Below, piece by piece: positions 11,252-26,016 of a stretch of DNA of 29,729 nucleotides. Position 1 is the stretch's first letter. Each line of letters begins with the position of its first letter. Source of the stretch: Candidatus Micrarchaeota archaeon (lineage in GTDB: Archaea; Micrarchaeota; Micrarchaeia; Norongarragalinales; SBBD01). The stretch spans positions 1-29,729 of the forward strand of contig JBBSVW010000028.1 in assembly GCA_038046605.1 (NCBI GenBank), read 5' to 3'. The position numbers and the translations under genes are program-made. The notes beneath the pieces are model-generated. The model ran no database searches. It was not told the origin of the DNA and was given only the letters and a program-made list of their open reading frames with translations.

Positions 11252-14200
11252 TCACTTTAGTTTTATTATCCTGACCGCCATCACTCCCGCAACAATTGCC
11301 CCCAGCATCATGAGCGCATACGGGAACTGCTCTGGAAATGAGGGTATGGAAAATGGCGTCGAATTTGAAGAGGTGCCCTGCCTTGTCTGGTAGCCGTAAA
11401 GATTATCGCCAGGGATTCCGCGCGTCCCTTCGGGCGTGTTGTATAAACTCAAACCGCGCTTTGCAAATTCATCATTCCATGGGATGTCCTGCCCGTTGAG
11501 GGCGTACCAAAGTCCCGTCCTTGGGTCAAAGGCAATCATCCCTCCGGCGCCCTTAGCTGCTAGAAGTGCCGCAAGCTCCAAAAGCCCATCCGGTCCCTGC
11601 GCGGATAGCACCGGCTGGCCATTTTTCATGTCCAAATTGAACTTGAAATCGCCCCTGTCCGTTGGGACAATTATGTCGTTTCCTTCCCTCCTAAGCGGGC
11701 CGGTAATATTGTAATCCGTTTGTTCACCGGTCTTTTTGTCAATTACGGAAAGAACCTGCTTGCCATTCTCATCCGTTGAAATCACATATTTCTTATCCGG
11801 CGTTTCAAGAAGCGTGAACCCGCCGCGGTTTCCATTTGCATCTGTTTGCACCTTATCAAGGGCTTCCTTCATCTCCTGCGCCTCCTTTTCACCGCCAACT
11901 TTAGGAATCACATTGTCAATTGAAATGCCCGGGACGCTTTTCCCATTCTCATCGATGGTGTTCTTAATTGATGTGGATATCGCCTTGATGTTATCCGCCG
12001 CCTTGGTTTTGGCAAGAATGTAAAGAGCAACCACTAGCCTTTTTCCGTTTTCATCAAATTCAATCCTTCCGCGCTCGGTGATTATTGTAAGCAGCGTTCC
12101 GGCTTGTACCTCCTCAATCCCTTTCTTTTCGCGCAAATGGCCCTTGATTAACACATCCCCATTGCCCATAATGGAAATCAGGTTTCCATTTTGTGCGCCT
12201 GCCCCAAGCTCATCCATCGCTTCAATAGAAGGCGCTTGAATTTCCTCACCTGCTTCAAATGCCTCTTCCCCACCCAGGGCTTCCGGAACATCAATTCCAA
12301 GTATTTCTGTTGCATTCCTTCCGGTGCTACGGATGTACCTGATTTTCCCCTCATCGGCAGTGATCCTCCCTTCCGTTGTGTAGACTGCTACAACCCTCCC
12401 AAAGCCCGAAGCACTCAAATCGCTGCCCACATCAATTTTTAGCGTTTTAAGCTGCTGCCTTAGGCAATCCATTGTTGAGCAGCCATCGTTTGTAATCAAT
12501 AGGTTTCCTCCCAGCGATCCTGGCGTTACCTGCAATATTTCGCTTTCATAGCACGCATTATCCAATCCAGCAGAAATTATGCGGTTTGGAATAAGCGTCC
12601 TGGCAAGATCCTGCATCATTAGTGAAAGCAATCCGCGGTCGGGATTTGATGACAATTTGAGGCTCTTTCCGGTTTTCTTATCCGTGTAGGTGACTCCCTT
12701 ATCATCAACGCAAACAAACCCATCCTTGGAATCATGGCATTCGCGGAAGCAGCCATTCTTTGCTAGCTTATCGTACACCCCAAACCATTGCTGCGTTGCG
12801 CCATCGAGGTGGATGTAAAATAGATCCTCCGGATTTAGCTGCCCGTATGGGTTGTCCTGGATCGCCCTCAAATTAAGCATTTCAGTTAGTGATTTTTCTT
12901 CCACCTTGCTGCCGATGCCCCCAAGCAAACCGGACAAGTTGAGCTGCTTGCCCACATCGATTTTTGTTATCTGGTCGAATTTTTTTTGCAGGTTCTGGTT
13001 TGCCTTGTCGGCTGAGATTTTCTGGTAGGCCAAAATCTTGTAGGATGTGTCCTTGCAGAGGGAGACGTATTCAAAACCGCGGCTTGCAATGACTTGCTTG
13101 CCTAGTTGAACTGGATCGAGGAGGACAATTGCTTTGTAGAGGTTTGCAGTAGCCTTTTCCATGGTCGTGTATTTCAATTCCGTCTTGTAGGGATCCAATT
13201 TCCGAAATTCCTGGGTCTTTGTTGTAATCTGTTTTGCCAATGCCTCGTGCTGGTCCGATGCGTGAAGAAAATCGTTATACAGTTTGTTGTAAGCTGGATT
13301 ACCCTGCCTCAATCCAGATTGTTCTGCCTGCGTTAACAGTTTAATACTGCTCGCTTTAGCCGCATATTCTTCCCCAGCCAATAGCTTCAATTCGTTGATC
13401 TCGCCGGATGTTTTGGTTAATAGTTCAGTTTGAGCCTTCGAGAAGAAACCAGTGGTCTTTGAGGATAGCCCCTTAAGGAAGCTTGCTTTGAATGCCCCGC
13501 CCAGGACCTGCAAGAACCCCTGATTTGGCCAAACGACGTTGGATGCAGACTGGACGATTGATACGCCGGTGAAAATCCTGTATTTTAGCAGCATGTTATC
13601 GACAATCTCCTCATCGCATACCTCGTCCTTGCTAAATCTCACCGGATCCACGAGCCTTGTCACAACAAAATCGAAAATACCCGCCCTTGTGATTGTCGAT
13701 ACCGGTCCCGAAAGGTATTGAATGTCGGCTCTCCTGTATATCAAGAAATTGACAAGGGGTGCAAGCACTGCCATGGACTGGTAATATTTTGCAAACTCCG
13801 CGTTATTCTTTATTGTAGTTCCCAGTTCAAGGTTATTGCTGTAAAGCGCGAAGCTGGTGTAGTCCCCGCCCTTCCTTACATCCTCAAATAACGAGCTTTC
13901 AGCCTGCCCTTTCCAATCCATTTTAACCTGCCAGCCAGTCCCTTTCTGCTCAAAGCTGGTGTAGCTGTCTGAATATTGCTCTTCTGGCGTTGAATCTCTT
14001 GTGATGTAAAATACCTTCCCGGTTTCGAATGCCTTTGTTGGCGCGCCCGCCTCCATCAAATCTGATGCCCAATCCGTGATTTTACCTGTTCCAAAGAAAT
14101 CTGATGCCCTCCTGAAATCGGTCAGGAAATCGTTATTATTTACGTAAATCTGAAGGTAATTATCCTTCAGCTTTTTATCGTTGGTAACCAATGATGAAAA

Positions 14201-15466
14201 AAGGATTTGATTTGATGCTGATAGGGCGATTCTTGCAGCCCCCATCCATCCAGCTCCATAGAGCATTATGGCTACCGGCTTCCATTTCTGGACGGATGTT
14301 TCAAAATCAAGCTGTCTCATTAATTTCTCATTCCCTTCGATCCTGCGGTTAGCCTCCAGTCCCTCGTTTAGCAATTCGTCGCCCTTTAGGCTGTCGCCTA
14401 GCCTTCCTTGGTTAAGTTTGCTTAACCGTTCGAGCTGTTCCTTATCGTCTTGCATTTGAAGCTTAAGTCCGTTCACTCCCTGCCTTGAGAATAATATTGA
14501 CGCTGCCCCTGCAAGCGAAGCCCACATTTCATAGTTGCTCCATTGCCCAACTGTGGTGACATACTTTTCATACATCCTTGGGATGACCATGCTTCCAGCA
14601 TAACTGTTAAGGGCAGCTGTAGTTTGCTTGGTAGTGATGTGCTGGGGAGCCTTCACAGTTGTCTTGCTCTGGTCAAAGCCTAGGAGGACATCTTTGTTGA
14701 GGAGCGCCTGGAATGTGACTTTTCCGTGGATGAAACTCCGGTCAATTAGGCATTGGTTCTCCTTTTCCTGCGGTTGGGTCTTCATGATGTCTTTCAATGC
14801 AACGCTCTTGCCGTTTGGAAGCACCACTTTGTATGCTTCATAGGCAGGCTTTGGAATTTCCCCTTGCTGTGAAATCCCAAGCACTTGAGCAAGCTTATCT
14901 TGCCCCCCAGTTGTCCGCGATGCAATTGCCCTAATCTGCTCACGGTTGAGCTTTCCGGTTTCGCTGTCTATGCCGAATTCTTTGGCAATCTCTTCGCGCC
15001 CCTTTTCATCATATTCCAAAAGGTTCGCAATATCCTTTATGCCGTAAACAGGCTGGTCGGCGAGATTGATGTTGATTTGGATGTTTTGGGTAGTTTGGTT
15101 TGTTGGATCATTTTTCCTAAGGGCAGAATCGCTTAATGTGGAGAGCTGCTCGGTTTGGAAAGTCAATAGGCCCTTTTGGTACCTTGCAACCTCCGCTGCA
15201 TCCATCTCCGCCATCTGGCAGGTTCCTTCAAAAGTAGTGAAATCCCTGACCTCCTCATCGGCAAAATTCAATTGGGATGGGGGGGTTGCTAAAGAGATAA
15301 TTTTGGAGTTTGCGATGTTTCCGAACCCATTCGATCCTTCTTTGCCACCCCCATCATCGTAGTAATCGTAATAATATGTGGATGCGTATGCGAACGGTGA
15401 AAATAGGGATAGGAGCATCAGCATGAAAACGGATAGGGAAAACACTCCCCCAGCAGAAGGCGCCAT
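11252..15466 (-). CDS. Very large exported, C-terminally membrane-anchored protein (1404 aa)
   Basis: Signal peptide (...LFSPFAYA), scattered Cys and internal hydrophobic helices. The C-terminus is IPSFPE plus a TM helix and a basic tail. Confidence 0.9.
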   Translation of the reverse strand: MAPSAGGVFSLSVFMLMLLSLFSPFAYASTYYYDYYDDGGGKEGSNGFGNIANSKIISLATPPSQLNFADEEVRDFTTFEGTCQMAEMDAAEVARYQKGLLTFQTEQLSTLSDSALRKNDPTNQTTQNIQININLADQPVYGIKDIANLLEYDEKGREEIAKEFGIDSETGKLNREQIRAIASRTTGGQDKLAQVLGISQQGEIPKPAYEAYKVVLPNGKSVALKDIMKTQPQEKENQCLIDRSFIHGKVTFQALLNKDVLLGFDQSKTTVKAPQHITTKQTTAALNSYAGSMVIPRMYEKYVTTVGQWSNYEMWASLAGAASILFSRQGVNGLKLQMQDDKEQLERLSKLNQGRLGDSLKGDELLNEGLEANRRIEGNEKLMRQLDFETSVQKWKPVAIMLYGAGWMGAARIALSASNQILFSSLVTNDKKLKDNYLQIYVNNNDFLTDFRRASDFFGTGKITDWASDLMEAGAPTKAFETGKVFYITRDSTPEEQYSDSYTSFEQKGTGWQVKMDWKGQAESSLFEDVRKGGDYTSFALYSNNLELGTTIKNNAEFAKYYQSMAVLAPLVNFLIYRRADIQYLSGPVSTITRAGIFDFVVTRLVDPVRFSKDEVCDEEIVDNMLLKYRIFTGVSIVQSASNVVWPNQGFLQVLGGAFKASFLKGLSSKTTGFFSKAQTELLTKTSGEINELKLLAGEEYAAKASSIKLLTQAEQSGLRQGNPAYNKLYNDFLHASDQHEALAKQITTKTQEFRKLDPYKTELKYTTMEKATANLYKAIVLLDPVQLGKQVIASRGFEYVSLCKDTSYKILAYQKISADKANQNLQKKFDQITKIDVGKQLNLSGLLGGIGSKVEEKSLTEMLNLRAIQDNPYGQLNPEDLFYIHLDGATQQWFGVYDKLAKNGCFRECHDSKDGFVCVDDKGVTYTDKKTGKSLKLSSNPDRGLLSLMMQDLARTLIPNRIISAGLDNACYESEILQVTPGSLGGNLLITNDGCSTMDCLRQQLKTLKIDVGSDLSASGFGRVVAVYTTEGRITADEGKIRYIRSTGRNATEILGIDVPEALGGEEAFEAGEEIQAPSIEAMDELGAGAQNGNLISIMGNGDVLIKGHLREKKGIEEVQAGTLLTIITERGRIEFDENGKRLVVALYILAKTKAADNIKAISTSIKNTIDENGKSVPGISIDNVIPKVGGEKEAQEMKEALDKVQTDANGNRGGFTLLETPDKKYVISTDENGKQVLSVIDKKTGEQTDYNITGPLRREGNDIIVPTDRGDFKFNLDMKNGQPVLSAQGPDGLLELAALLAAKGAGGMIAFDPRTGLWYALNGQDIPWNDEFAKRGLSLYNTPEGTRGIPGDNLYGYQTRQGTSSNSTPFSIPSFPEQFPYALMMLGAIVAGVMAVRIIKLK

Positions 15467-21738: not shown

Positions 21739-23172
21739 TTATCCCTTAATCACTCCAATCGGAACCATCTTTGCAACAATCTTGCTTATTCCTGCAAGCT
21801 CGACCGCCCTAACGACCTCATCCACATTCTTGTAGGCTCCGCCGGCCTCTTCCGCGAGCAGTTCATAGCTTCCGGCCTCAATTGCCTGCCCCGATGCTTC
21901 CATTTGCTTAACGATATCCCTTCCTGAAAATCTCCGGATTGCCTCGTGCCTGCTCATCACCCGCCCTGCACCATGGCAGGAACTCCCGAACGTGAGCGCT
22001 GCACCGGGCTGGCCGCATAGCAAATATGAGGCCGTATTCATTGAACCCGGAATGATCACCGGCTGGCCCACATTCCTATAAGCCTGCGGGATTTCCTTCC
22101 TTCCCTTCCAGAATGCGCGCGTTGCGCCCTTCCGGTGGACGCAAACCTTCTTGGTTTTTCCCGCAACTTCGTGCTCTTCAAATTTAGCAATATTGTGGCA
22201 AACATCATAAACCAGCGATAAATCGTAATCCTCCCATCTCCCCCCAAGCACCTGCGCAAATGTCTCCCTTGCCCAATGCGTCATCAGCTGGCGGTTGTTG
22301 AATGCAAAATTTATTGCAGTCCTCATCGCCTGCAAATAATCCTGCGATTCCTTTGCATGAAGCGGCGCATATGAAAGCTCCCTATCCGGCAATTGCCAAT
22401 TGTTCTTTTGGATTGCCCCCATCATCGTTCTAATGAAATCATCGCATATCTGATGCCCATAGCCCCGGCTTCCGGAATGCACCATGATTGTGATCTGCCC
22501 TTCGTGGGTAATTCCAAATGCCTTGCCTATTTCAGGATCGAGGATTTTTTCCACTTTTTGGATTTCCATGAAATGGTTGCCGGCGCCAAGCGTCCCCAGC
22601 TGCGGGCCGCCGCGCTTTTTTGCCATATCGGAAACCAATGAATAATCGCTATCGCCAAAAAAGCCATTCTCCTCGCAATGCTCCAAATCCTTTTGGGTGC
22701 CATAGCCGTGATTGACCGCCCACCTAAGCCCTTCCGTTACCGCCTCCTCGAGCTGCTGGGGGTTAAGCCTAACCTTGCTCTTGCTGCCAACGCCAGATGG
22801 AACATTGGTGTAAAGCGCTGAGATGAGGGGTTTGAGCTTTGGACGGATGTCCTTTTCGCTAAGGTTTGTGCGTATCAACCGGACGCCACAATTTATGTCG
22901 TATCCTACTCCACCGGGCGAAACGATCCCATCATCCGGATCAAATGCTGCAACCCCCCCTATCGGGAAGCCATACCCTTCATGGCCATCGGGCATGACGT
23001 AGCTCGCCTCCAATATTCCTGGAAGCTGCGCCACATTTTGCGCCTGCCTAAAGGTCCTATCGCTCATCATCGACCCTAGCATCTCCGAGGTTGAAACTGC
23101 GCGAACAGGTACGCGCATGTCCCCTTCCTTGGGGGATTCGTATATTCCCTTCCTGAATTCCTTGAAATTCAC
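21739..23172 (-). CDS. rtcB: RNA-splicing/repair ligase RtcB
   Basis: Motifs PDGHEGYGFPIGG, VGYDINCG, GNHF, HSGSRG, HN, HRKGAT and HGAGR. GTG start with SD GGGTGAT. Confidence 0.98.
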   Translation of the reverse strand: MNFKEFRKGIYESPKEGDMRVPVRAVSTSEMLGSMMSDRTFRQAQNVAQLPGILEASYVMPDGHEGYGFPIGGVAAFDPDDGIVSPGGVGYDINCGVRLIRTNLSEKDIRPKLKPLISALYTNVPSGVGSKSKVRLNPQQLEEAVTEGLRWAVNHGYGTQKDLEHCEENGFFGDSDYSLVSDMAKKRGGPQLGTLGAGNHFMEIQKVEKILDPEIGKAFGITHEGQITIMVHSGSRGYGHQICDDFIRTMMGAIQKNNWQLPDRELSYAPLHAKESQDYLQAMRTAINFAFNNRQLMTHWARETFAQVLGGRWEDYDLSLVYDVCHNIAKFEEHEVAGKTKKVCVHRKGATRAFWKGRKEIPQAYRNVGQPVIIPGSMNTASYLLCGQPGAALTFGSSCHGAGRVMSRHEAIRRFSGRDIVKQMEASGQAIEAGSYELLAEEAGGAYKNVDEVVRAVELAGISKIVAKMVPIGVIKG

Positions 23173-23338: not shown

Positions 23339-23878
23339 ATGTGGAAATACCTATTGCTCTCTATAATATCAATTCTGATCATTGCCCAGTTTGGGCTTCT
23401 TGATGTTGGGGGGCTCCTCGAAAAACGCACTATCGGCATCCATGCTGACAAATCCGAATACAAAAGCGGGCAGGCCATCATTATCAATGCAACCGGAAGC
23501 GGAAGGAAGTATGTATCCATTGGCCAATTCCCCTTCGAATTCTTCAAATTCGGCGAAAAATCAAAGGCTTGGGAAAAGCTTGATGTAGGCAATGGCCCAC
23601 TCCCGAAAATTTATTGCAATAATGGCCGTATGGAACTCTCCGGCACAGCAGTTGATGACCGGCTGGTTTGCAGGCAGTTGGAGTCCATGCAATTCAAGTG
23701 GATGGGCAATTCGTGGAGAACTGTTCGCATCCCCTGCGGCCAATCCGAGCTGGACGAAACAAGGATTGTAAACGAGACCGGCAGGATTAAGGCGCAACTA
23801 ACGGTTTATGACGATTCAAGCTGCACAAAATTGAATGCGACCCTATCGGTTGAATTCCAAATCAACCCCCGAACATAA
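23339..23878 (+). CDS. Secreted or membrane-anchored beta-rich (Ig-like) protein with 4 Cys
   Basis: N-terminal hydrophobic segment and a DKSEYKSGQAIII pattern typical of Ig-like domain starts. Confidence 0.75.
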   Translation: MWKYLLLSIISILIIAQFGLLDVGGLLEKRTIGIHADKSEYKSGQAIIINATGSGRKYVSIGQFPFEFFKFGEKSKAWEKLDVGNGPLPKIYCNNGRMELSGTAVDDRLVCRQLESMQFKWMGNSWRTVRIPCGQSELDETRIVNETGRIKAQLTVYDDSSCTKLNATLSVEFQINPRT

Positions 23879-23950
23879 CGCCATTCTTATCCCCAAACAT
23901 AAACAATATTCTTATTAATGGCAAGCGGGAAATAGGAATGGAAGCTAATT

Positions 23951-25156
23951 ATGGCAAAGCGGTCAAAAATGAAAAAACGCAGGGCGGGGCAAGTTTTCCT
24001 CTATTTGCAATCGGGCTCTTCAATGCAAAAAAAGGGAATTTCAGCCAGCTCCATTGGTAGGCCCGGAAAAGTAGAGTTGGAAAAGAACCCCCAAGCAATC
24101 CCAAAATCAGCAATTTCCGCAGCCAATTCACCAAATGCGGTTATTGCAGCAAAGCAGCCAAAAAACCAGAAATCAATTTCCCAAATCAAGGATATTTCGC
24201 AAATCAAGAGCACTGCCGATGTTGCCGTATCCGATGCACTGATCGACCAGGTGATAGGGCAAAACAAGGCAATTGAAGTAATCAAGAAGGCGGCCATCCA
24301 AAAGCGAAACGTCCTTCTTGTGGGAACGCCCGGAACCGGCAAAAGCATGCTCGCACAGGCGATGGCCGAGCTCATGCCAATCGAGGAGCTTTCGGACATT
24401 GTAGTTACCGCCAACCGCGAGGATGACAACATGCCAAAAGTGAAGATACTAAAGGCGGGTGAGGGCAGGAAGATAATTTCCGGCGAGCGGATGCAAACAC
24501 GCATGACCGCAGGGAATACGAATTACATGATGATTGGCTTCATGATGCTTTCCATGATGATTGGGCTTTATATCCTTCCCAAATACTTTTCCGATGTGAT
24601 TGTTGCCGCAATGCTAATTGGGATGTTCCTAATGGGGGCGGCACTTGTTTTTGGGATGACACTTGGCAGGGGCAGGATGTTTGATACTGCCGAGAGCATG
24701 AAATTGATTGTGGATAATTCAGGGAAGAAGAAGGCGCCCTTTGTTGATGCTACTGGAAGCCGGGCAGGCGCACTTCTTGGGGATGTGAAGCACGATCCTT
24801 TTCAGTCATTTGATGGGAAGACAAAAATTGAGCTAAATGGTTCCCAAAAATCAATGGAGGACGCATGGAAGGAATACTCCGGCAAATTCCCAGTTGAAAG
24901 GAGGGATGATGGCTACGAATCAATCATTGTTCCCAAAAAGGCGAAGGCGAAAATCAAGGCAAGGAAAGGCAAAAAGATTGCCCAATCAAGGCTCCTAATC
25001 ATCAACCGAAGGCCATATGGTGGAAAGCTCGTTGGCATTAAGGTTGGGAAAAAAGGCACTTTGTTTACAACCCCGGAGCACGCCTACATTTCTAACCCAT
25101 CCGAAAAACGGGCAAGCAAATTAAGGAAGGGGATGAAGGTATTTGCTGAAAATTGA
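23951..25156 (+). CDS. lonB: Archaeal Lon protease (LonB) N-terminal half fused to an N-terminal intein fragment
   Basis: Motifs LIDQVIGQ, Walker A GTPGTGKS, two TM helices and APFVDATG...GALLGDVKHDPFQ. No Walker B or protease domain follows. The true start may be ATG 24023. Confidence 0.92.
   Translation: MAKRSKMKKRRAGQVFLYLQSGSSMQKKGISASSIGRPGKVELEKNPQAIPKSAISAANSPNAVIAAKQPKNQKSISQIKDISQIKSTADVAVSDALIDQVIGQNKAIEVIKKAAIQKRNVLLVGTPGTGKSMLAQAMAELMPIEELSDIVVTANREDDNMPKVKILKAGEGRKIISGERMQTRMTAGNTNYMMIGFMMLSMMIGLYILPKYFSDVIVAAMLIGMFLMGAALVFGMTLGRGRMFDTAESMKLIVDNSGKKKAPFVDATGSRAGALLGDVKHDPFQSFDGKTKIELNGSQKSMEDAWKEYSGKFPVERRDDGYESIIVPKKAKAKIKARKGKKIAQSRLLIINRRPYGGKLVGIKVGKKGTLFTTPEHAYISNPSEKRASKLRKGMKVFAEN
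24806..25153 (+). mobile_element. Split-intein N fragment (IntN, 116 aa)
   Basis: Block A-like SFDGKTKI (Ser1), block B TTPEH (TxxH, 25070-25081) and N4-like RASKLRKGMKV, then a stop. Confidence 0.85.
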
Positions 25157-25281
25157 GCTAATGTGCTGCCTGTTGTTTTTGCCAATTCTTCGGCTCTTCA
25201 CAATCGCCAATTAACCTGTTCCTCTCCGAAATTTTCCTAGTACCGATTGTTTTTTATATGTCTTTTGATTATCAAATTGGT

Positions 25282-26016
25282 ATGCCGAACTCCAAAGCCC
25301 AAACATCCCTGGAATATCTCTTCTTGCTTGGAGGCGTGCTTGTCACCTTGATTGCAGTCATAATCATTACTAGGGGCAATGTGTTTGGAACAACAAGCGG
25401 AGGGGTTGACAATACGACACTCACAATCAACCAGACCTTTGCTTCGGTCCAAGGAAAGGCGCCGGTAATTTCGAATGTACAAGTTACGGTTAGGGCCGAT
25501 ACTGCCATTATTTCATGGCAAACAGACCAGCTTACCTCTTCTTCCGTCGCCTACAAGCCTTCGGCTGGCACAGTTGATTCCTATGCCGGCTCAACAACCC
25601 AAGTTTCCTCTCACAAGGTTACCATTTCTAATATGCCCCTAACAACGTATTCCTACCAGGTCACCTCATGCAATACACAATCGCTTTGCGCAACCAGCAG
25701 CCCCGGATCGTTCACGATAGTTTTCTCCGGCATCTGTCCACAATTTGGACAAAGCTGCGGGAGCATTGTTCAATCATGCGGCTCGTTCTCGACCTGTACA
25801 ACGTCATCCAAATTTGACGCCTATTGCGATTGTGTACCAGATACTCCGGTTTGCATATCTTGCGGAACGTCCTCGAATCAAATTAAGGGATTCTGTCCCG
25901 CAGTAACGTGGTGTACCTGGACTTGCGCCAATCCTTGCACACTACCTGGTGGAGTACCAACCTGCGGCACTTGCACCGGCACTTGCAATCCTTGTGGTGG
26001 AGGCTCTGGAACTTGA
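25282..26016 (+). CDS. Class III signal peptide (pilin-like) protein with FN3-like domain and Cys-rich tail
   Basis: KA|QTSLEYLFLLGG prepilin motif and FN3-like PVISNVQV...IISWQTD...HKVTI...YSYQVTS. The last ~95 aa hold 16 Cys. Confidence 0.88.
   Translation: MPNSKAQTSLEYLFLLGGVLVTLIAVIIITRGNVFGTTSGGVDNTTLTINQTFASVQGKAPVISNVQVTVRADTAIISWQTDQLTSSSVAYKPSAGTVDSYAGSTTQVSSHKVTISNMPLTTYSYQVTSCNTQSLCATSSPGSFTIVFSGICPQFGQSCGSIVQSCGSFSTCTTSSKFDAYCDCVPDTPVCISCGTSSNQIKGFCPAVTWCTWTCANPCTLPGGVPTCGTCTGTCNPCGGGSGT

Follow-up and report, generated by a model that had tools for sequence, protein, structure and literature searches.

We describe sequence evidence that a gene of a Candidatus Micrarchaeota archaeon encodes the N-terminal half of the membrane protease LonB fused to the N-terminal fragment of a naturally split intein. 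The gene lies at positions 23951..25156 of a 29,729-nucleotide stretch of DNA (GenBank assembly GCA_038046605.1, contig JBBSVW010000028.1, forward strand), hereafter called the window, and in related genomes a second gene carries the C-terminal intein fragment together with the rest of the protease. We infer that the two LonB halves are covalently joined by trans-splicing through this intein, a reading that we hold at a probability of roughly 85%.

The window gene and its intein N-fragment

The open reading frame (ORF) at 23951..25156 (+), stop codon included, encodes 401 aa; the gene-caller version (P0001) has 395 aa, six residues less, compatible with a start at the second Met, and its relatives in the databases carry Candidatus Micrarchaeota labels. 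When the ORF was compared with the NCBIfam LonB model TIGR00764, residues 85-367 matched profile positions 4-196 of 608 with 199.6 bits, which is below the whole-protein cut-off of 516.6 bits. A genome-wide search with the LonB profile placed window positions 24203-25084 at profile positions 4-206, and TIGR00764 positions 206-608 found no match anywhere in the window, in agreement with the initial annotation, which had seen no LonB continuation there. The N-extein (residues 1-285, 23951..24805, +) consists of a basic N-terminal tail and the N-terminal part of the LonB AAA+ domain up to ...GDVKHDPFQ (TIGR00764 positions 4-196), with the Walker A motif GTPGTGKS at residues 125-132 (24323..24346, +). 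Behind Walker A, a Kyte-Doolittle scan detected a 50-residue hydrophobic stretch interrupted by a break (residues 191-240, 24521..24670, +), which we infer, topology included, to be the membrane hairpin of two helices typical of LonB. LonB similarity ends at ...GDVKHDPFQ, residue 285, where the protein reads ...GALLGDVKHDPFQ, then SFDGKTKI..., while in the intein-less LonB of relatives HDPFQ is directly continued by SGGLGTP. The break in the host protein falls between Walker A and Walker B, inside a single AAA+ domain. Judged by these matches, the window ORF is half of a LonB, not the whole protein.

The 116 residues that follow (24806..25153, +), which contain no cysteine, are read as an intein N-fragment (IntN) from alignment A1, from the matches of its profile to solved inteins and from likeness to a contiguous mini-intein. 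A1 comprises 16 sequences, i.e., 15 split N-halves and the contiguous LonB mini-intein of genome G034, and the window gene is 60-68% identical to its congeners across this stretch. The presumed first nucleophile, Ser1 (residue 286, codon 24806..24808, +), is Ser in 15/16 and Thr in 1/16 of these sequences, and the T, E and H of the block B motif TPEH (residues 374-377, 25070..25081, +) are invariant (16/16). The window IntN shares 47% identity (E 9e-26) with the N-part of the G034 mini-intein, and the NCBIfam model TIGR01445 (intein_Nterm) recognises 12 of the 16 IntN sequences of the family, the best at 2e-7. When the A1 profile was compared with solved structures, the top match was the KlbA intein of M. 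jannaschii (2jmz, 9.3e-9), followed by VMA, CDC21 and RadA inteins, and 18 of the 19 chains listed were inteins or intein hosts; these matches and the recurrence of the architecture in relatives place the observation beyond chance. The frame ends within the intein, with no C-terminal splicing region in the window gene: its TGA stop (25154..25156, +) stands at the canonical split point, aligning to the endonuclease-insertion point of contiguous relatives (alignment A4). The layout read by the initial annotation, with LonB ending at HDPFQ, 116 aa carrying Ser1 and TPEH, then TGA, was confirmed, as was its remark that the break lies near the usual split-intein position. Altogether, these comparisons point to the tail as the N-fragment of a naturally split class-1 intein.

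Split LonB genes in related genomes

The same split was sought, as the initial annotation had advised, by searching TIGR00764 against 41 genomes: the window's own, 6 of its genus (70-78% DNA identity to it), 4 more of its family and 30 of its order. An N-half-type match (profile 4 to ~197; frames of 325-465 aa) was found in 17/41 genomes, and 15 of these 17 also have a C-half-type match (profile ~194-607; frames of 457-535 aa; 632-666 bits), the N-half alone being found in the window's genome and in its congener G005. Both halves occur in 9/10 genomes of the window's family. The predicted second gene, an IntC (intein C-fragment) joined to a Lon C-half starting with SGG, was thus found in 15 related genomes, 9 of them of the same family, and not in the window's own assembly. 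The halves lie on separate contigs or far apart on one contig, as in G007 (143 kb, + strand, versus 53 kb, - strand), G028 (100 kb and 78 kb) and G032 (58 kb and 28 kb). The remaining genomes of the order have mostly one uninterrupted LonB of 631-718 aa.

Junctions were then read directly. In each of the 17 N-halves, the extein closes with HDP[FYL]Q, and the next residue is S in 16 of them and T in one. The tail that begins there measures 111-124 aa in most, 138 and 163 aa in two, and is cut by the contig end in one. The C-half genes (alignment A2, n=16, a 17th, G002b, being left out as identical to the copy of G004) start with Met and 30-50 aa of IntC (mostly 40-44), end this part with a terminal Asn and continue with SGGLGTP. 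Invariant in A2 are Y-N, T-T, G-N, the terminal Asn (16/16) and Ser+1-GGLGTP (16/16). Before the terminal Asn, where the initial annotation had expected HN or xN, His stands in 12/16; two sequences have Ser there, one has Arg and one Lys. One congener C-half scored 661 bits by itself against TIGR00764 over profile positions 195-607, and NCBIfam TIGR01443 (intein_Cterm) recognises 13/16 IntC, for example that of G003 with 28.4 bits against a cut-off of 15.6.

Across the whole order (68 genomes), the IntN profile matches 34 places in 32 genomes. Short frames (198-502 aa) hold 28 of these places in 27/68 genomes, 10 of which are known by frame length alone, and include 11/11 genomes of the window's family, the window's own counted. 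Cysteine is absent from the 10 IntN and 9 IntC sequences examined in this family. The IntN profile matched 91 proteins (E <= 0.001) when searched against a library of 1.84 billion representatives; among the 33 matching at E <= 1e-10, the match ends at most 20 residues from the C-terminus in 20, a count made by hand that includes the window's own protein and some fragments. The first 70 residues of a C-half matched 206 clusters, and 105 of the 120 listed are 433-547 aa long; twelve listed ones are longer (618-640 aa), and four sequences were read, one of C-half length and three longer. Public annotation calls these genes 'ATP-binding protein', 'LAGLIDADG family homing endonuclease' or 'sigma 54-interacting transcriptional regulator'; given such annotations, LonB may be under-called in DPANN genome surveys.

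To judge constraint, divergence at replacement sites (pN) was set against that at synonymous sites (pS). Among congeners, IntN gave a pN of 0.20-0.33 versus a pS of 0.68-0.90 (21/21 pairs) and IntC 0.13-0.37 versus 0.71-0.95 (10/10 pairs), i.e., synonymous sites are saturated and replacement sites are not. By this measure, both IntN and IntC are under purifying selection. The predicted fold of the contiguous G034 mini-intein (161 aa) has a predicted local distance difference test score (pLDDT) of 97.3, and all listed Foldseek matches to it are inteins or other HINT domains, with TMq up to 0.86. When the window IntN was modeled with a congener IntC, the predicted complex scored 0.87, compared to 0.00 for the best control; this mark is reached by 58/80 solved complexes and 2/110 mismatched pairs. 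Contact agreement between docking runs was at least 91%, and the pLDDT of the partner was at least 74. The two fragments are thus predicted to associate into one fold, with the proviso that such a pass may reflect likeness to solved split-intein structures rather than prove binding.

Proposed trans-splicing and its alternatives

In the mechanism that we propose, the membrane-anchored N-half, with Walker A and the hairpin, would be made fused at ...HDPFQ to the 116-aa IntN, and the second gene would supply Met, a ~44-aa IntC ending in Asn, Ser+1 and the rest of LonB, i.e., Walker B, the helical domain and the Ser-Lys protease domain. After translation, IntN and IntC would dock on the cytoplasmic side of the membrane to form a single HINT fold; trans-splicing would then join ...HDPFQ to SGGLGTP..., freeing the intein pieces and yielding a normal full-length LonB. 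Our rating of this reading follows from two points: neither half should work alone, because the break separates Walker A from Walker B of one AAA+ domain, and the nucleophile Ser1 has been conserved together with block B, the terminal Asn and Ser+1.

Several observations count against this reading. The window tail scored 16.2 bits with TIGR01445, below the cut-off of 24.5, and the Pfam intein and Hint models gave no match to it at E <= 1; the profile check suggested by the initial annotation gave a mixed outcome, below cut-off or without a match for the window tail and positive for most of its family and for the A1 profile. Compared to the Pho RadA intein, block F of the C-fragment is unusual, the Asp and the His normally found there being replaced by Asn and Gly, respectively, and the penultimate His is replaced in 4/16 IntC. 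The IntC used for docking was taken from a congener, not from the window's organism. An IntC-LonB-C gene was not found among the 106 contigs of the window's genome with TIGR00764, Pfam Lon_C or the IntC profile A2, and tblastn with the G003 C-half, the search proposed by the initial annotation, did not find the partner either. An exact 40-mer from the start of contig C65, one of two contig ends between which we expect this partner (see below), occurred among metagenome contigs only in the same 6582-base contig (L079), with no bridge.

A further proposal adds a function to trans-splicing. One half, with Walker A, would sit in the membrane and the other, with Walker B and the protease domain, would be soluble, so that trans-splicing would serve as an assembly checkpoint. 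The split might then be retained for its usefulness and not just as an irreversible state: active LonB would be restricted to the membrane, and its amount would be set by whichever half is scarcer; this would include tandem trans-splicing of a three-gene LonB in some DPANN archaea (see below). We consider this unlikely, and gating of protease assembly by trans-splicing, suggested by the initial annotation, is speculation. For the intermediate gene arrangements found in relatives, the passive break-up of a mobile intein is an equally good or better explanation.

An improbable alternative to trans-splicing is that the fragments no longer splice and serve only as an assembly tag of mobile-element origin that binds one LonB half to the other without a covalent bond. 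There is a precedent in a fragmented enzyme put together by interaction domains that stem from a mobile element (accessible text of PMC3045599), and a block F without the usual Asp and His, a Ser, Arg or Lys before the terminal Asn in some C-fragments and the Thr at position 1 of G039 would suit such a tag. However, Ser1 (15/16), the T..H of block B (16/16), the terminal Asn (16/16) and Ser+1 (16/16) are kept despite synonymous saturation, and mere binding would not need these residues, which argues against a tag. The contiguous alleles of G034 and of Thermococcales share the unusual block F, yet must splice to give a one-piece LonB, and the position of the break within one AAA+ domain likewise speaks for covalent joining.

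It is also conceivable, with very low probability, that the C-half was truly lost from this genome and that the window gene is a decaying relic. No C-half is present in the window's assembly, and the congener G005 likewise shows only the N-half. However, both assemblies are incomplete (the window's, 1.64 Mb in 106 contigs, is 90.7% complete; that of G005 has ~110 contigs and 90% completeness), 9/10 genomes of the same family carry both halves, and the window ORF is intact, with all catalytic residues present, 60-68% identity to congeners and pN far below pS. Gene neighborhoods point the same way. The gene downstream of the C-half in G001, G002 and G004 matches a gene starting 16-22 bases from the start of C65, the gene upstream of it in G001 and G006 matches a gene ending at about base 660 of C41, and beyond the latter match another gene runs off the end of C41. 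Since the flanking genes of the congeners' C-halves map to these ends, the C-half is expected between them, and the partner gene probably lies in the assembly gap C41-C65.

Other candidates in the window's genome were rejected as partners. C9, C23 and C89 encode stand-alone S16 protease-domain proteins, further IntC-type candidates are the C-ends of contiguous inteins in other genes, and C13 encodes a paralogous, AAA-only Lon-like ATPase without a protease domain. This paralogue (G000:C13:30650-32161, - strand; a 504-aa frame matching LonB profile positions 4-93 and 154-402) has a four-Cys zinc-ribbon-like insert at the position of the LonB membrane hairpin, and counterparts are listed for all 40 relatives. 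Contiguous inteins are also abundant in the genome: Pfam Intein_splicing has matches in six long frames of 711-1222 aa, on C45 (two matches within one frame), C11, C55, C4, C13 and C29, and none of these models detects the LonB IntN.

Contigs built independently cross the junction, the stop and the downstream region. For two runs labelled as possible sources of this DNA, another assembler gave a contig of 2524 bases that covers 23700-25500 and one of 5314 bases that covers 24007-25500, and a 151-nt contig from a run of a different study spans the stop codon (25084-25234), all with 0 differences; no joints or indels were reported in them. Coverage of the stretch by runs X3 and X4 has gaps, and conclusions from them are limited to the covered parts. 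The misassembly check called for by the initial annotation thus came out clean, and an artefact, i.e., a contiguous intein-bearing LonB broken at the stop by misassembly, frameshift or sequencing error, which we considered since the window stems from a fragmented metagenome assembly, found no supporting evidence and has a negligible probability, given these contigs, a stop at the same intein point in 17 genomes and an unrelated protein encoded past the stop.

Origin, known systems and further arrangements

Within the order, one insertion site is seen at every stage. It is empty in, for example, G015 and G016, holds contiguous mini-inteins in G034 (Ser1) and G026 (Cys1), and in G021 is occupied by a contiguous intein of 497 aa that starts with Thr1 and includes an endonuclease domain. 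Thr at intein position 1 was seen both in this intein (L028:2107-3597) and in the split one of G039 (L048:3539-3904). In the 'fractured' loci of G020 and G031, the N-half, a free-standing ORF of 344 or 373 aa and the C-half follow one another on a single strand. With the endonuclease part of the G021 intein, this ORF shares 35% identity (E 3e-53), and these ORFs match the endonuclease region of an intein-containing RtcB model (3e-21 and 5e-19); Pfam gave no match to the G020 ORF, and profile A3, built from three endonuclease sequences, matched nothing meaningful among solved structures (best E 0.078, a histone acetyltransferase). Just downstream of the G020 locus, a 156-aa ORF (L057:5247-5717) weakly matches LAGLIDADG_3 (E 0.002, below cut-off). 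The halves are adjacent in G039, with an unrelated small ORF between them, and dispersed without an endonuclease in the window's family.

Most likely, judging from these gene layouts, the arrangement arose by break-up of a mobile LonB intein. The fractured-gene model of Dassa et al. 2009 (accessible text of PMC2677866) ends with loss of the endonuclease and uncoupled halves; the stages seen in the order are the sequence of events in that model as given there, and the window's family is its end state, with both halves dispersed and no endonuclease. A C-extein tree was built from 35 rows; G012, G013 and G017 were left out by a motif filter, and G000, G005, G014, G030 and G037 have no usable C-part. 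The window's family forms a single all-split clade (support 100/99). Counting only well-supported branches, at least 3 changes are required to explain the split state; this count includes the row G029, mislabelled 'split' (its frame is cut by the contig end and covers profile 114-607 without an intein), and we draw no number of origins from it. The closest neighbor of the split G039 LonB in this tree is the intein-less LonB of G035.

Contiguous inteins at this site are known from Thermococcales, as the initial annotation had stated. LonB of Thermococcus nautili and Pyrococcus sp. ST04 reads HDPFQ/C...KN/SGGLGTP, slashes marking the intein borders, and a Lon intein of Pyrococcus abyssi was reportedly described by O'Brien and colleagues in 2010 (cited in PMC4031507). 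The Thermococcales intein shares host, site (HDPFQ/SGGLGTP) and a homologous C-terminal block (..YN.TT..GNL.AN....N) with the split one; unlike the latter, which has Ser1 and no endonuclease, it is in one piece, with Cys1, an endonuclease domain and Lys before the final Asn. LonB is named among the intein hosts of Euryarchaeota in the accessible text of PMC4760082.

Among split inteins, that of DnaE has Cys1 and Cys+1, in contrast to the Ser1 and Ser+1 of LonB, and Nanoarchaeum equitans, whose PolB is split, is a DPANN archaeon. The gene parts of cyanobacterial DnaE and N. equitans PolB lie at different loci (accessible text of PMC2677866). These systems share with LonB the canonical split at the endonuclease-insertion point, a long IntN, a short IntC and dispersed host halves, but their hosts are DNA polymerases, whereas the host here is a membrane-bound AAA+ protease with a membrane-anchored N-half. 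The fractured genes of Dassa et al., as far as that text presents them, have exactly the layout of G020 and G031 (N-half-IntN, free endonuclease gene, IntC-C-half); they encode, however, enzymes of DNA synthesis and repair, and their endonucleases are of the GIY-YIG or Vsr-like type, whereas the free LonB ORF is homologous to an embedded intein endonuclease. G020 and G031 qualify as fractured genes; the window locus, with neither a C-half nor an endonuclease gene beside the N-half, does not. The words 'Lon', 'protease' and 'archaea' each occur 0 times in the text of PMC2677866.

Closest in chemistry are the cysteine-less split inteins Aes123 PolB1 and LCGC14 PolB2, of phage-type PolB (accessible text of PMC12707363 and PMC13014065). 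They likewise have Ser1 and Ser+1, and their fragments of 115-120 and 39-46 aa compare with 116 and ~44 here; they differ in host and intein sequence family. The natural candidates discussed in the accessible text of PMC12707363 come from PolB-type polymerases. The structure of fused Aes123 PolB1 (9hth) was among the top fold matches of the contiguous G034 homologue. A split Lon intein was not found in the full-text literature, PMC2677866, PMC4760082 and PMC7765530 included, where contiguous Lon inteins were found, with supplements, subscription journals and intein databases outside the scope of the search; the statement of the initial annotation that it knew of no described split-intein Lon holds within these limits. 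The naturally split intein as a kind is well known; LonB as its host is new, as is the presumed dependence of a whole archaeal family on it, and the large set of natural cysteine-less variants is apparently new.

Protein-ligation tools are built from naturally split inteins, of which there are few, and the LonB family offers dozens of diverged natural variants with Ser1 and Ser+1, cysteine-free in the window's family. If our reading is right, an essential-looking membrane AAA+ protease of a whole Micrarchaeota family would be placed under obligatory post-translational ligation. One archaeal order, spanning the empty site to dispersed halves, makes the origin of a split intein comparable within one gene.

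Other archaea appear to split LonB further. Three consecutive genes on one strand make up LonB at G068:C6:174313-180622 (L166, L173, L162) and on G069:C48, G070:C6, G071:C2 and G072:C22, i.e., in 5/5 genomes, which were chosen for matching the middle protein and are labelled Iainarchaeum, Nanoarchaeia or unclassified archaea. The genes cover profile positions 3-197, ~170-267 and 266-607. The first carries an IntN-a behind profile positions 3-197, the middle proteins begin with an IntC-a followed by a ~90-aa LonB piece, and the middle gene of G068, which is cut at the locus start, ends with the N-part of a second intein fused to an endonuclease/helix-turn-helix region. The third starts with a second IntC ending in HN, then CDFVL... 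and the protease. Such a LonB would call for the combined action of two different split inteins, one Ser/Ser and one Cys/Cys, which, if true, would be a natural case of tandem trans-splicing.

A further group (P0127, P0164, P0109 and P0026) shows a second mode of splitting at this LonB site, in which the N-half, IntN and an endonuclease domain share one frame with a conserved C-terminus and no IntC or C-extein. Two of these proteins have Ser at position 1 and two have Thr; P0026 has no name, and the other three are called 'ATP-binding protein', with Heimdallarchaeaceae, Woesearchaeota and Micrarchaeota labels. Two split-type N-halves, both annotated 'LAGLIDADG family homing endonuclease', contain in addition a contiguous endonuclease-bearing intein, between ..FVDA and TGSRAG in P0007 and inside Walker A, after GTGK, in P0008; a LonB of this type would need cis- plus trans-splicing.

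Three other ORFs of the window were read by eye or from the ORF list. Downstream of the LonB gene, the unrelated, Cys-rich ORF at 25258-26016 (+) encodes 252 aa with a hydrophobic N-terminal segment and a C-terminal half very rich in Cys, Thr and Ser. Just upstream, at 21739-23172 (-), a 477-aa ORF resembles an RtcB-type RNA ligase in an uninterrupted frame. The largest ORF of the window, at 11252-15466 (-), encodes 1404 aa.

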